Source of the DNA: a phage
Length of the DNA stretch: 64,000 nt
Sequence record: PZ379075.1
Reading direction: 5' to 3' (one strand)
In this document: positions 17,569-29,513 of the stretch, one piece after another
Position numbering within the stretch: position 1 is the first letter of the stretch
How the letters are laid out: the number at the start of each line of letters is the position of its first letter
The notes under the pieces: generated by a model
The model's database searches: none
Told to the model about the DNA's origin: nothing
The model's input: the letters and a program-made list of their open reading frames with translations, nothing else
Position numbers and translations under genes: made by a program

Positions 17569-17777
17569 TGAAAAAGATGTGGGCTATTCATGTTGTTTGG
17601 GATCTTGAGCAACACATGAGAAAAGATAACATCAAATTGTTTGACACTCGCAAAGAGGCTCGTATTGCTAAGAAACAGTTGAAGACTCTGGGCACAATAG
17701 TAAAAAGCGCTGACATACATCGCTGGTATGAAGACCCTAACACTGGTTCTTTTATGTCTAAAGTAATTTACTACTGA
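17568..17777 (+). CDS. small basic protein, paralog 3
   Basis: 69 aa; TAATG overlap; ends in YY. Confidence 0.55.
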   Translation: MKKMWAIHVVWDLEQHMRKDNIKLFDTRKEARIAKKQLKTLGTIVKSADIHRWYEDPNTGSFMSKVIYY

Positions 17778-17849
17778 TTGGTAGTAGATATGATAACTCT
17801 CAAATGTATATAGAGTACAATAAGAATTTGTATTTTACAGGAGAGAGTT

Positions 17850-22587: not shown

Positions 22588-22620
22588 CAAAGGCTGCCTA
22601 ATCAGGTGGCCTTTTCTTTT
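22588..22620 (+). terminator. intrinsic terminator
   Basis: aaaggctgcc-taatca-ggtggccttt (10-bp stem with two G-U pairs) followed by TCTTTTAT. Confidence 0.45.
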
Positions 22621-23797: not shown

Positions 23798-25642
23798 GTG
23801 AGCAACCCGGACGCTCTTCCATTTTTGACAGAGATGACTGTCGCTGATATAATCTCTAAGCAAGCAAAGCACGGAGTGAGTTTCAACCGAAGAAATGCTC
23901 GGTGGTATGTTCACCTCCTTAAAGAGATTATTGTTAATATTGACAGAGAGTTGATTCCTCTCTTACCTAAGATGAGATTAGATGGCTCTACTTACATGAA
24001 GCCATTTAAGAAGTCTGGAGCTTTACAGAAGTGGCCTCAAGCCTATTGTGATAGGGTTGGGCTGAAAAGAGAAGATATTGGTGGAGCTTTCACCTGCGTC
24101 GAATACGTAGACTTTGACCCATCGAAAGATGCACGAGTTAAAGAAGCTCTTATGGATGAGGGTTTTCTTCCTCCAGAGTTTAACGTATCTAAGAAGCCTT
24201 GGAATACTTTCGAAATTAAGAAAGATATGCGAAAGTATGGAACATACCAAGCATGGTATACTGCTTGGATGCGAGGTAATGCTAAGCAAAAGCAGACAGC
24301 CGAGATGGTTGACGCTGATATTAAGAAGTTCTTAGAAAAGCATTTCAGGTTTAAAACTAAGAACTATATGAAGGCTTACGTATTTGGTTTGGGATTAAAC
24401 CCGAATCGCCGTAATCCTGTAACGTTTGATGAGATTAAGAAAGCACTAGCCACATCAAACAAGTGGCCTACAGCTCCTACAAACCTCGAGGAGACTCTTG
24501 AAGAAGGGTTAGGGGGTGAGCTAGGGAGTGTCGGAAGTTTGCTTAAGAGACGCGTTGTAGCGGCTCACAGGCTAGGTCTTATCAGTGGACTCATAGCAAA
24601 GGAACGCGAAGATGGTAAACTTTCGGCAGAAGCTAACAGCTGCGCTACGCCGACTTTTCGATTCAAACATCGTATCGTGGTTAATATTCCCTCCCGTGGT
24701 CTGTTTGGTCACGAGTGTCGCAGTTTGTTTGAGTCTGACTATAACTCAGACAGTGATCACTCTCGTCCTTTCGTTATTACTAACGTTGTTCCTGATGGTT
24801 GTTATATACGAAAAGGTACTAACGTAATTTACGAGAAAGGTAAGCCGGGGAAGAAAGATAAACCTATAGGTGCTTACAAATATTACATACCCGCTGGTAA
24901 AGAAGTATTCTTAGGGTATGATGGTTCTGGACTTGAACTTCGTATGCTCGCTCACTACCTCATTAAAGAGTGTAGGGATATGCTTGCTGAGGCAATTGAA
25001 GAGAACAACCCAGCTAAGAAAGCTCTGGCAGAACGTGGTTTAGCTTCTGCTATTATGTATCGTGATATTCTCCTTGAAGGTGATATCCACTCCCACAACC
25101 AGAAACTTGCTGGTCTTCCTACTCGTGACAACGCTAAGACGTTTATCTACGCATTCAACTATGGTGCTGGTGATGCTAAGCTTGGTTCAATTGTAGGTGG
25201 TGGGGCTGACGAAGGTTCAGTGATGCGAGCACGTTTCTTAGCAGAGAACCCATGTATTGCAATCCTCATTGATCGTATGACAGAGAAAGCTGCTCAAGGA
25301 TACTTGATTGGAGTTGATGGTCGTAAGATTACAATGAGACGGGATGCCACTGGTAAGGTTATGGTTCATAAAGCCCTTAACACACTCCTGCAATGTGCTG
25401 GTGCTGTTGTTATGAAATATGCTATGATGTTCCTTAACAAGTGGATTGAGAAAGATAAGGTTCGTTGTGCTAAGGTAATTGATATGCACGATGAAGGTCA
25501 ATTCTCAGTAAACCGTAATGATGTACAGAAACTCAAAGAGCACACCGAGCTTTGTGTTAAGAAAGCTGGCGAGTATCTGAATATGGAATGTCCTCTGGCA
25601 TCTGATTGTCAGATTGGACTTAACTGGATGCATACACACTAA
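23798..25642 (+). CDS. DNA polymerase, family A (polymerase domain only)
   Basis: Motif A DGSGLELR, motif B RDNAKTFIYAFNYGAGDAKLG, motif C VIDMHDEG; 614 aa; no exonuclease domain in this ORF. Confidence 0.8.
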   Translation: MSNPDALPFLTEMTVADIISKQAKHGVSFNRRNARWYVHLLKEIIVNIDRELIPLLPKMRLDGSTYMKPFKKSGALQKWPQAYCDRVGLKREDIGGAFTCVEYVDFDPSKDARVKEALMDEGFLPPEFNVSKKPWNTFEIKKDMRKYGTYQAWYTAWMRGNAKQKQTAEMVDADIKKFLEKHFRFKTKNYMKAYVFGLGLNPNRRNPVTFDEIKKALATSNKWPTAPTNLEETLEEGLGGELGSVGSLLKRRVVAAHRLGLISGLIAKEREDGKLSAEANSCATPTFRFKHRIVVNIPSRGLFGHECRSLFESDYNSDSDHSRPFVITNVVPDGCYIRKGTNVIYEKGKPGKKDKPIGAYKYYIPAGKEVFLGYDGSGLELRMLAHYLIKECRDMLAEAIEENNPAKKALAERGLASAIMYRDILLEGDIHSHNQKLAGLPTRDNAKTFIYAFNYGAGDAKLGSIVGGGADEGSVMRARFLAENPCIAILIDRMTEKAAQGYLIGVDGRKITMRRDATGKVMVHKALNTLLQCAGAVVMKYAMMFLNKWIEKDKVRCAKVIDMHDEGQFSVNRNDVQKLKEHTELCVKKAGEYLNMECPLASDCQIGLNWMHTH

Positions 25643-27566: not shown

Positions 27567-27782
27567 ATGGAATACATTGATAAATACTCAAGTGAAGATT
27601 CAACAAACGCTGAAGTTTTATTTATACTAAAAACAGACTGTCTTGAACATGGTCAACTTATCAATTTCATTGAGTTAGCAAAACTTAAAGAAGAGATAGA
27701 TCAACTGTATAGCGATGAGCAGTCTCGTTTGTTATCACTGTCCCTTCTCGGAGATCTTACCTGTGATGGATGTACTATCTAA
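27567..27782 (+). CDS. hypothetical protein
   Basis: 71-aa ORF. Confidence 0.45.
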   Translation: MEYIDKYSSEDSTNAEVLFILKTDCLEHGQLINFIELAKLKEEIDQLYSDEQSRLLSLSLLGDLTCDGCTI

Positions 27783-27942
27783 CTCTGAGAAAAAGAAGAT
27801 CTCAGTATTTAAAGAACCTGTAGTTTATAAAGACTCTATCAGAGATCAATATAATGAGATGTTAAAGAAACAAGCTGATTCTAATCTTCGTTATCAGAGG
27901 ATAATAGAACAAACTAACTTTAAAGGTTTACTTGAATGGTAA

Positions 27943-28358
27943 CTTATATCCTTTACTTTTTAGCTTTCTTAGGAATAATCTTTTTATCTATTATTCTTGA
28001 ATTTGGTTTAAGTAGGTTAGTTAATTATTTAGGTAATAAGTAATTAATATTCTTTTAAATAGAGAATCAAAGTCCCTAGGAGTCCCTACAACCTAAATCA
28101 AGGATTCCTTAATTCTCTATTTTTATCTCGCAGGTGGCTCCTGCCCTTCGGTACTTGCAAGGGATTCTGTGAATTGCCCAATATACAAGCCTGCAATAAC
28201 TTTATCAGCTATACAATATATACATTACTAGTGTGTTATATCTACTACCAAAGATACTTATATTATATAGTACTCTTATCGGTATAAGCGTAATGTATAC
28301 TATACATAACCGCTCAAAGAGAGCAACAATCTTTCAAATTAAATAAGGAAATTAAAAT
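27943..28358 (+). promoter_or_regulatory. AT-rich structured intergenic region (candidate promoter cluster or replication origin)
   Basis: About 415 bp without ORFs; 11-bp inverted repeat aaatagagaat (28057-28067) / attctctattt (28112-28122) flanking a tandem direct repeat agtccctagg/agtccctaca (28071-28090); further short hairpins; AT-rich TATAC-type repeats 28190-28320. Confidence 0.4.
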
Positions 28359-29105
28359 ATGTCTATGATTCCAACTATCGCAACTGCTTCCCGTAAATCC
28401 AACTACGATGTAATCCCTGATGGTGAATACGAAGCACGTATCGTTCGTGTAGTAGGTTTGGGTGTTCACAATCGTGACCCTTGGATTGACCCGAAGACCA
28501 AAGCAGTAACTCCTAAGAATCCGGCTTTCCGTATGGATTTAGCTTTCGAGCTGATTGGTGTTGATGCTACTGGTAAAGATTCCGATGGTAAGGCATTAGA
28601 ACCACGTCCAGCTTGCCAGTTCAAGAGCTATGATGTAAACCCACGAGCTAAGAACTCTGGTATTCTTGATCTTTGCAAAATGATTGACCCAAGTATTCAA
28701 GCACTGAAAGGTGATCTGTCTTGGTTCAAGGATGTTCTGTTAGGTCAGCCTGTTAACATTCTGGTTAACTCTTATACTAACAAATCTGGTGAAGTTAAAA
28801 ACTCCATCAAGACCATTTCTCCAATCCCAACCAAATATCGTGCAGCAGTTGGTGAAGCTCGTAGTCCTCTGGTATTCTTCGAACCGTATGCTGAAACCGA
28901 TGAGAACGTAGCATCCTATCAACTGATGTTCCCGTTCCAGCGCAACCTGCTTACTCAAGCTAATGACGCTAAGAACATGCCTCTGGCTGGTCGTGAAATT
29001 ACTCGTGCTTCTGAAACAGAGCAGAAAGAAGCTACTCCTTCAATCCCTACGATTGATAAAGAGCCTGCTTCTACTTACGAAGACGACAACGATAGCCCAT
29101 TCTAA
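28359..29105 (+). CDS. putative single-stranded DNA-binding protein (acidic C-terminal tail)
   Basis: 248 aa, isolated between a long AT-rich upstream region and a strong terminator; C-terminus TYEDDNDSPF resembles the acidic, aromatic-terminated tails of bacterial and T7-type SSBs. Inference from the tail and context only. Confidence 0.4.
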   Translation: MSMIPTIATASRKSNYDVIPDGEYEARIVRVVGLGVHNRDPWIDPKTKAVTPKNPAFRMDLAFELIGVDATGKDSDGKALEPRPACQFKSYDVNPRAKNSGILDLCKMIDPSIQALKGDLSWFKDVLLGQPVNILVNSYTNKSGEVKNSIKTISPIPTKYRAAVGEARSPLVFFEPYAETDENVASYQLMFPFQRNLLTQANDAKNMPLAGREITRASETEQKEATPSIPTIDKEPASTYEDDNDSPF

Positions 29106-29126
29106 TAACTCTCCTTGTTATAGCTT

Positions 29127-29150
29127 AGCCACCTCCGGGTGGCTTTTTTC
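29127..29150 (+). terminator. intrinsic terminator
   Basis: agccacc-TCCG-ggtggct followed by TTTTTT. Confidence 0.6.
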
Positions 29151-29162
29151 GTTGGAGACAAC

Positions 29163-29513
29163 ATGCAAAACACATTAAGTGATAACTTAGGGTTTATCGT
29201 TTTCTCAGCTCTTGTATTCTTTGGTGGTATGAAGTTTAACGAATATCAAACAGACAGCAGTAATCTGGACAAAGAGAAGCACCAGCAAGAGTTAGAGATT
29301 GAAAGAAGTAGAGCAGCTGATGAAGTTGCTCAGAGAGTTCTTACCGGTTTATCTAACTGGAAGAAGAACACGGAAACCGTTTATAAAGAGATGCATTATG
29401 AGAAAACTAAACCAGTTTTTTATAATGTCTGCGCTAGTGATGAGTATGTCAGCTTGTTCAACGAGCGACAACAGCAGGCAATCAATGCCCTTACCAACAA
29501 ACCTAAAAGCTGA
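29163..29513 (+). CDS. putative i-spanin (Rz-like)
   Basis: N-terminal transmembrane helix (LGFIVFSALVFFGG) followed by a charged coiled-coil-like domain; contains the start of an out-of-frame lipoprotein gene. Confidence 0.45.
   Translation: MQNTLSDNLGFIVFSALVFFGGMKFNEYQTDSSNLDKEKHQQELEIERSRAADEVAQRVLTGLSNWKKNTETVYKEMHYEKTKPVFYNVCASDEYVSLFNERQQQAINALTNKPKS

Follow-up and report, generated by a model that had tools for sequence, protein, structure and literature searches.

A predicted leftward gp36-type promoter facing a nearly invariant non-coding element upstream of gene 40 in phiEco32-like phages

The DNA under study is a 64,000-nucleotide stretch from a phage (record PZ379075.1), referred to below as the window, and the analysis concerns the spacer between two of its genes, gene 41 and gene 40, together with the divergent promoters and the nearly invariant non-coding element (block A) located there. 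A BLAST search with positions 27600-29200 identified the window as a phiEco32-like Kuravirus (Gordonclarkvirinae) and matched 104 related phage records, the closest being Shigella phage ShigP1 (99.9%), with phiEco32 itself at 98.4% (NC_010324 35731-37331, opposite strand). A first-pass annotation had flagged positions 27943-28358 as 415 bp of non-coding DNA, free of open reading frames (ORFs), upstream of a gene resembling those for single-stranded DNA-binding proteins (SSBs). The phiEco32 counterpart of this stretch is the spacer between phi32_41 and phi32_40, and the claimed extent had to be given up, as the left end is occupied by gene 41, a conserved homologue of phi32_41 assigned to PHROG 24970. 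The product of gene 41 is a single-helix peptide, and its start codon overlaps the preceding stop (ATGgTAA), an overlap through which the gene is translationally coupled to the upstream ORF. Gene 41 is missing from ECBP2, Paul, XT18, Bas86 and Bas88, which carry a longer phosphoesterase gene there instead. The true non-coding spacer is 28044-28358, and at 315 bp it is the largest annotated gap among phiEco32 genes 53-33. The features of the locus are collected in Table 1.

Table 1. Features in and around the spacer between gene 41 and gene 40, in window coordinates.
Feature	Position	Strand	Description
Gene 41 (phi32_41 homologue)	27936..28043	+	35-residue hydrophobic peptide; annotated in phiEco32 and relatives; PHROG 24970, E = 8e-24
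Block A	about 28057..28149		Nearly invariant non-coding element of ~95 bp; from alignment of diverse relatives
Tandem direct repeat	28071..28088		AGTCCCTA twice, 10 bp apart, inside the block A hairpin
Hairpin 2	28130..28144		GCAGG-TGGCT-CCTGC; -6.8 and -6.3 kcal/mol on the two strands
Exchangeable module	28150..28192	-	Separates the 5' hairpin from block A; relatives show three or more unrelated versions, every one with a hairpin of its own; from alignments
P1 hairpin	28196..28212	-	AUAGC-UGAUAAA-GUUAU; +1 to +17 of the predicted leftward transcript
Pminus, predicted gp36-type promoter	28217..28251	-	-35 box TTGGTAGTAGATAT (28251-28238), N10, TAATGTATATA (28227-28217); predicted start ~28212
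P40, known gp36-dependent middle promoter of gene 40	28267..28306	+	TAATGTATA at 28291-28299; -35-like ATAGTA at 28267-28272
Gene 40 5' untranslated region	28306..28358	+	Hairpin GCUC-AAAGA-GAGC (28312-28324), AU-rich leader, Shine-Dalgarno AAGGA (28345-28349)
Gene 40 (phi32_40)	28359..29105	+	248 residues; OB-fold SSB-like, acidic C-terminal tail
Intrinsic terminator	29127..29150	+	Closes the P40-gene 40 cassette; terminator scan; annotated as terminator in relatives

The repeats, hairpins, terminator and AT-richness reported by the first-pass annotation were, unlike its 415-bp extent, all borne out. The perfect 11-bp inverted repeat, AAATAGAGAAT at 28057-28067 and ATTCTCTATTT at 28112-28122, extends to 14 nt at 93%, and when the region was simulated 300 times with a first-order Markov model, an inverted repeat of at least 11 bp arose in 5 of the runs. 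The two copies of the direct repeat AGTCCCTA begin at 28071 and 28081, and in addition to hairpin 2 the hairpin CCCTT...AAGGG was found at 28144-28163. The TATAC-rich repeats proved to be the gp36 promoter motif TAATGTATA described below, with near-palindromic copies of it, and the terminator 3' of the downstream gene was located at 29127-29144 plus a T-run. In base composition the stretch is extreme, 27911-28073 being the AT-richest 100-150 bp of the window (GC 18-21%), and 28210-28309 ranks about third in AT-richness. What had been overlooked were gene 41, a promoter on the minus strand, and the unity of the inverted repeat and the hairpins as one ultra-conserved block.

A strong regulated promoter had also been proposed upstream of the SSB-like gene, and this is the published promoter P40, served by the phage sigma factor gp36, and thus already known. 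P40 is one of six promoters (P6, P13, P26, P40, P58 and P68) that have been detected experimentally with the phiEco32 gp36-holoenzyme (Pavlova et al. 2012, as cited in PMC4331800, in PMC8948821 and its supplement, and in PMC12276001), and the sequence given for P40 in the SU10 S2 table is identical. In gp36 promoters, P40 included, transcription starts 6-8 bp downstream of the -10-like element (PMC4331800; PMC8948821), and taking the G of this element as -11 (numbering as in PMC12276001) the P40 start was predicted at about 28306. The -10-like element that marks these promoters is tAATGTAtA, its AATGTA centred at -11.5. The P40 element is an exact copy of TAATGTATA and is invariant in the alignment of relatives, and in the -35 region the A at -34 is kept and position -37 is an A.

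Exact copies of TAATGTATA occur four times in the window. Three correspond to P40 and to the spots expected for P58 and P26, the latter two being assigned by position and strand only. The fourth, at 28227-28219, is on the minus strand and faces away from P40, from which it is 63 bp distant; the two predicted starts are 94 bp apart. This minus-strand site (Pminus) is preceded by the 14-nt box TTGGTAGTAGATAT, which is found in the window at only one other place, the promoter P68 (17778-17812). The distance from box to element is 10 nt at both P68 (AAATGTATATA) and Pminus (TAATGTATATA), and TTGGTA, at -39 to -34 of Pminus, is identical to that of P68. The A at -34 is common to all seven gp36 sites compared. 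P68 is the promoter that was used for the cryo-electron microscopy structure of the gp36/gp79 open complex, in which the C-terminal domain of gp36 reads -37G and -34A, and mutations of these two positions in P68 abolish transcription (PMC12276001). As -37G and -34A both fall inside TTGGTA, and the 10-nt geometry is the same, Pminus has both recognition elements of a proven promoter.

The conservation of Pminus was followed through 27 distinct variants drawn from phage genomes, IMG/VR, metagenomes and Logan assemblies. These variants kept TGGTAGT and AATG(T/A)A, and the spacer between box and element occurred in more than 10 versions of sequence at a length constant within 1 nt, while the distance from the box to P40 ranged from 52 to 183 bp. 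This variable distance to P40, combined with a near-fixed spacer, ties the box to the minus-strand motif and not to P40, and judged from sequence the pattern of conservation is the signature of a selected bipartite promoter on the minus strand. As a predicted seventh gp36-type promoter and twin of P68, Pminus is well supported, and it would be expected to fire in vivo. It shares with the phiEco32 gp36 promoters, of which P40 is a member, the tAATGTATAtA element, and with P68 in particular the -35 box and its spacing. In contrast to them, it lies outside the listed six and would run against the direction of the middle genes. There is no minus-strand ORF of at least 40 codons downstream of it in 27943-28212, so that with Pminus a gp36 promoter would for the first time lack a gene. 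Neither Pminus nor block A is among the six gp36 promoters listed in PMC4331800 and PMC8948821, and Pminus is unmentioned in the accessible literature. Scans for sigma-70 promoters and for terminators gave nothing in the spacer above shuffled expectation. Co-variation of the -35 boxes of P68 and Pminus was not seen across the phages, P68 being constant where Pminus reads ATGGTAGTATAT.

Two further observations on these promoters were made. The -35 box of P68 forms the right half of a palindrome, TACTAC-N6-GTAGTA (17771-17788), which is kept in SU7, EcM-vB1 and KBNP1711 and resembles an operator for a dimeric protein; Pminus is without the left half. In phages of the myPSH2311/EcM-vB1 type (relatives L008 and L009, 1125-1307; L016, L025-L034 and L056), a 146-bp insertion is located precisely between the divergent promoters, and it encodes a 47-residue ORF whose ATG overlaps the -35 box of Pminus.

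Pminus faces block A. This element comprises the inverted-repeat hairpin (28057-28122), a T5/A5 linker (28120-28129), hairpin 2 and the sequence CCCTTC. Its pairwise diversity is 0.02-0.10 versus 0.2-0.5 in the upstream genes, a conservation that equals or exceeds that of the best-conserved coding DNA nearby and that stops at the base of the hairpin. Block A is almost unchanged even in phages whose gene 40 proteins are 71-82% identical, despite diverged promoters, leader and neighbouring genes. It was found as a single copy in 99 phage records, and only a few of the listed records carry an annotation for it. A coding function was ruled out by stops in all frames and by indels of 1-2 nt, and no indel of block A lies outside a predicted loop or bulge. 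A blastn search of 5,426 E. coli genomes with block A returned no match, and a host-derived or host-mimicking sequence was rejected on this ground; a homologue of block A was absent from the 7-11-like sister group of phages. On the minus strand only, the long inverted-repeat hairpin is extended to 16 bp through G.U pairs, and folds with -22.5 kcal/mol versus -17.7 kcal/mol on the plus strand. Variation in hairpin 2 is located in the loop (G/T), apart from a compensatory GCTGG/CCAGC (A-U to U-A) in relative L050, and in ECBP2-type phages both copies of AGTCCCTA have jointly become AGTCCT. The almost complete constancy of its primary sequence suggests that block A is in contact with a partner that does not itself vary, for example host RNA polymerase, Hfq or an RNase of the host, or a conserved protein of the phage.

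Between Pminus and block A lie the P1 hairpin and the exchangeable module, a third version of which is present in relatives L047 and L051. P1 takes up the opening 14-18 nt of the predicted leftward RNA, and it stands at +1 in every lineage. It was able to pair in all eight of its versions (AUAGC/GCUAU, AUAGC/GUUAU, AUAGA/UCUAU, AUAGU/ACUAU, AGAGUUA/UAACUCU, AUCUCU/AGAGGU, AUCUCU/AGAGAU and ACAUC/GAUGU), both partners change at two of the pairs, and the covariation score was reached by none of 500 shuffles. The G.U pair in P1, seen in the window and in seven other variants, would turn into an A.C mismatch in the plus-strand sequence, the fold energy being -2.9 kcal/mol on the minus strand and 0.0 kcal/mol on the plus strand. 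In each of 15 variants the minus strand folded better than the plus strand, by 3-10 kcal/mol, and the z-score of the fold was -2.0 for the window and -3.4 for MN05. The leader of gene 40 is comparable in this respect, as its hairpin GCUC-AAAGA-GAGC (-5.2 kcal/mol) shows the compensatory forms GUUC/GAAC and GUUCA/UGAAC in diverged relatives. A small covarying hairpin thus also opens the P40 transcripts, and a 5' hairpin on the leftward RNA fits a genuine gp36 transcript. A long-range helix proposed by RNAalifold, UUGCAGG/CCUGCGA, which would close the variable module, was rejected, as L050 breaks it while compensating the local GCAGG/CCTGC. Rfam gave no match at the gathering threshold in the window, and in 27900-28400, with matches admitted up to E 10, only chance-level ones with E above 1; ARAGORN found no tRNA or transfer-messenger RNA in the window. 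Matches of 11-mers of the leftward RNA elsewhere in the window were at chance level.

The explanation that we favour, with moderate confidence, is that the spacer is a divergent gp36 promoter hub, from which gene 40 mRNA is made rightward and a structured non-coding RNA leftward, with a shared hairpin that also acts on rightward transcripts. According to this model, transcription from P40 at about 28306 would yield a short self-contained mRNA made up of the 5' hairpin, the AU-rich leader, gene 40 and the terminator. Transcription from Pminus, starting at about 28212, would yield a non-coding RNA with P1, the exchangeable module, hairpin 2, an A-rich linker and the long inverted-repeat hairpin in that order. 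Its length would be about 155-165 nt if the 3' end lies at or just past the base of the hairpin (~28050), where conservation stops. The same hairpin, together with the invariant UAUUUUUAUC on the plus strand, would probably also end or process rightward transcripts of the upstream genes, and such termination or processing would insulate the gene 40 cassette. Within this model the identity of P40 comes from the literature, and the identity of Pminus with P68, the family-wide conservation and the covariation in P1 and hairpin 2 come from the sequences themselves; we infer from these that Pminus fires, that its RNA ends near the hairpin base and that this RNA has a role. P40 being known already, what is new is Pminus and block A, that is, a promoter facing an unusually conserved structured element that has neither an annotation nor an Rfam family.

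Several results weigh against this model. The terminator scan returned no canonical terminator on the minus strand, where only UAUUUAAAA stands 3' of the hairpin, and it is the T5 tract on the plus-strand side that is invariant and the opposite flank that varies, as a plus-strand terminator would predict. Beyond P1 and one pair of hairpin 2 no helix varies, and covariation thus neither supports nor contradicts most helices of the structure predicted for block A. Four natural single substitutions in block A are divided two against two, those of TH42 and L027 fitting an inner helix of the plus strand and those of XT18 and L034 fitting the minus strand. As for the promoter, one metagenomic contig (L025, ERZ1034915 NODE-75) reads TAATATATATA in place of TAATGTATATA, a G(-11)A change that reflects either a natural variant with a weakened promoter or a mistake in the assembly, and the spacer is 1 nt shorter in four diverged lineages, three of which carry AATGAA and not AATGTA.

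In the most probable alternative only the plus strand matters: the hairpin, the invariant U-tract and hairpin 2 would together be a terminator, an attenuator or an RNase III/E site that ends the upstream operon and insulates the P40-gene 40-terminator cassette, with Pminus silent or incidental. The plus-strand tail UAUUUUUAUC is invariant, and it is on the left of the hairpin, in arm and flank, that variants occur (AAATAGAG, AAAAGAG or AATTAGAG); the plus strand can form an inner helix AGGAGUCC/GGAUUCCU, with which alone two natural substitutions are compatible; and genes 58 and 40 both resemble promoter-gene-terminator cassettes. A classic RNase E site consists of two hairpins with an AU-rich single strand between them, and the layout of block A matches this look. 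There is likewise a likeness to the RNase III sites of T7 and to bidirectional intrinsic terminators, as a long irregular hairpin with an internal loop stands between cassettes and is flanked by A- and U-tracts. The differences from these are that the stem is AU-rich, that it encloses a 44-nt interior, that the terminator scan calls it on neither strand, and that cleavage would here be hypothetical; the loop of 44 nt and the weaker plus-strand fold likewise count against a terminator, which in its intrinsic form has a G+C-rich stem of 5-14 bp, a loop of 3-8 nt and a U-tract behind it. Moreover, 95 invariant bases exceed the needs of a terminator, and the reading leaves both the bipartite, fixed-geometry Pminus and the G.U covariation of P1 unexplained. 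A role for the plus strand is in any case compatible with the divergent hub, which already includes termination or processing. As a full account of the locus we thus consider the plus-strand reading unlikely.

Somewhat less probable still is an origin of replication primed by a promoter, in which the Pminus transcript would run through block A into the AT-richest DNA and form a persistent RNA-DNA hybrid, priming leftward leading-strand synthesis beside the SSB gene. Origins primed in this way include those of T7 (phi1.1A/B plus an AT-rich region), T4 (oriF/oriG) and ColE1 (RNA II), and the arrangement seen here, with a phage-specific promoter followed by a transcript region that is structured and rich in G, and beyond it by very AT-rich DNA, would be similar. 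The conserved promoter is aimed at the AT-richest 150 bp of the window (27911-28060, GC 0.21), and 27911-28073 supplies an AT-rich region that could unwind beside a promoter. The AT-rich left flank of block A was kept (GC 0.19-0.29) in 17 of the 17 lineages checked, whichever gene occupies this flank. Over block A the RNA strand is rich in G, with a plus-strand GC skew of -0.30 at 28050-28149, the site lies within the replication-gene module and adjoins the SSB-like gene, and strict conservation of primary sequence is typical of origins. In contrast to the known promoter-primed origins, however, most of the AT-rich tract is taken up by coding sequence, either gene 41 or the phosphoesterase gene's 3' end, and primase or initiator sites were not identified: there are two 8-bp direct repeats only and no array of three or more iterons, and no array of DnaA boxes or initiator sites was seen by eye, no scan having been made. 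The related 7-11 group keeps the gene yet is without the element, and no published Kuravirus origin was found. Cumulative GC skew shows no inflection at 28 kb; it turns only at 33-34 kb, with its maximum where the plus-strand (early/middle) and minus-strand (late) modules converge. As skew follows the direction of transcription and tracks gene orientation, it is silent about 28 kb. Thus the half of the first-pass interpretation that proposed a replication origin found no direct support, in contrast to the half that proposed a promoter.

It is very improbable that block A acts as double-stranded DNA, as an array of operator or architectural sites for a conserved phage or host DNA-binding protein that controls both flanking promoters. 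Candidate sites are the two copies of AGTCCCTA, two copies of AATCAA(A/G)G and the palindrome AAGGA-T-TCCTT. What is conserved is primary sequence and not merely pairing, the AGTCCCTA repeats are spaced by one helical turn and change jointly to AGTCCT, and the P68 palindrome hints at a protein operator in this class of promoter. Against this, block A is 60-155 bp away from the Pminus start, on its downstream side, and over 155 bp upstream of P40, and the exchangeable module of 42-68 bp alters its distance to the promoters. Insertions occur at the centre of the AAGGATTCCTT palindrome, which would be tolerable in a hairpin loop and not in a dimer site, and a candidate protein is lacking.

A type I toxin-antitoxin-like system akin to par (Fst/RNA II) or TxpA/RatA, in which the hydrophobic single-helix peptide of 35 residues encoded by gene 41 would be a membrane toxin and a convergent Pminus RNA its antisense regulator with a shared bidirectional terminator, would suit the convergent promoter beyond the 3' end of gene 41, the shared hairpin and the pair of direct repeats, but is largely ruled out and of negligible probability, since at least seven phages without gene 41 keep both block A and Pminus in full (ECBP2, TH42, NC-B, XT18, Paul, Bas86 and Bas88) and the conserved part of the RNA does not overlap that gene.

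Returning to the divergent hub, the predicted leftward RNA can be compared with the small or antisense RNAs that other phages transcribe from a promoter facing the end of an operon, such as oop of lambda and sar of P22. As with these, a short untranslated RNA would be made from a dedicated intergenic promoter and would converge on an upstream operon beside replication genes. In contrast to oop and sar, the conserved body of the RNA is intergenic and not antisense, its promoter is predicted to depend on a phage sigma factor, and there is no similarity in sequence or in Rfam.

phiEco32 serves as a model for a phage that redirects host RNA polymerase by means of its own sigma factor, gp36, and the co-factor gp79, and its set of gp36 promoters has stood at six since 2012, every one of them driving protein genes. 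If the prediction is true, a seventh promoter without a gene would add to this well-studied system a layer of regulatory RNA or a replication primer. The element itself is RNA-sized and more conserved than the neighbouring proteins across some 100 sequenced coliphages that are candidates for therapy; were it an origin, it would fill a gap for a subfamily without a known one. The prediction is cheap to test, as the holoenzyme, gp79 and assay templates exist. Going one step further, it could be envisaged that phiEco32-type phages encode a non-coding RNA driven by the phage sigma factor, whose 95-nt near-invariant 3' domain acts on an invariant partner by reprogramming host RNA polymerase in put-like antitermination, by sequestering a host RNA-binding protein or RNase, or by priming phage DNA replication at a Kuravirus origin, a proposal that we regard as speculative and rather doubtful. 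The put RNAs of HK022 are cis-acting antiterminator RNAs that bind host RNA polymerase. Extreme constancy of sequence would fit an invariant host partner of this kind, and the two systems would have in common a pair of stem-loops soon after a promoter and a phage reliant on host RNA polymerase. For the leftward transcript, in contrast to put, no terminator that needs overriding is known.

On the other side of P40, the 53-nt leader of gene 40 is nearly invariant, with a diversity of 0.055-0.086. SSB synthesis is in T4 autoregulated through a translational operator of gene 32, and by analogy the gene 40 leader may be a translational operator for SSB autoregulation. A sub-threshold match to the Rfam DUF2815 RNA, a leader motif of gp2.5-like SSB genes, was obtained at 15 bits against a gathering threshold of 41, and covers the AU-rich ribosome-binding region only.

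The designation of gene 40 as SSB-like, made in the first-pass annotation, is reasonable as far as a structure model can tell. AlphaFold gave an OB fold with a predicted local distance difference test score (pLDDT) of 82.5, and the top Foldseek matches of the model were OB-fold SSB, PrgE, RPA and PriB, the best with E = 5e-4 and all with low TM-scores. The family consensus ends in DDDxPF, an acidic tail terminating in PF. The sequence libraries, in contrast to the model and the tail, gave no support: gene 40 had no match in Pfam and no sequence match in the PDB, and its PHROG is of unknown function.

The 7-11-like relatives have an unrelated conserved 150-bp leader upstream of their gene 40 homologue (L021-L023, about 1345-1500; L054, 1045-1200), which contains TAGCTTAGCTTAGCTTTG repeats and a 7-bp hairpin, AGCATAT/ATATGCT. 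In other respects the neighbourhood of gene 40 is a hot spot for recombination and insertion between invariant non-coding blocks: genes for HNH homing endonucleases occur right after or near gene 40 in relatives (L002, 3499-3912; L014, 1-220; L054, 1982-2407), and the phosphoesterase module upstream is variably present.

Elsewhere in the window, a strong plus-strand terminator at 22589-22614 is followed by the second AT-richest segment (to 22712), and with P58 at 21922 this terminator makes up a cassette of promoter, gene and terminator, as seen for gene 40. A 614-residue ORF (23798-25642) has at its start, at 23825-23853, a sigma-70 promoter that matches the consensus perfectly (TTGACA-17-TATAAT, preceded by an upstream TG).

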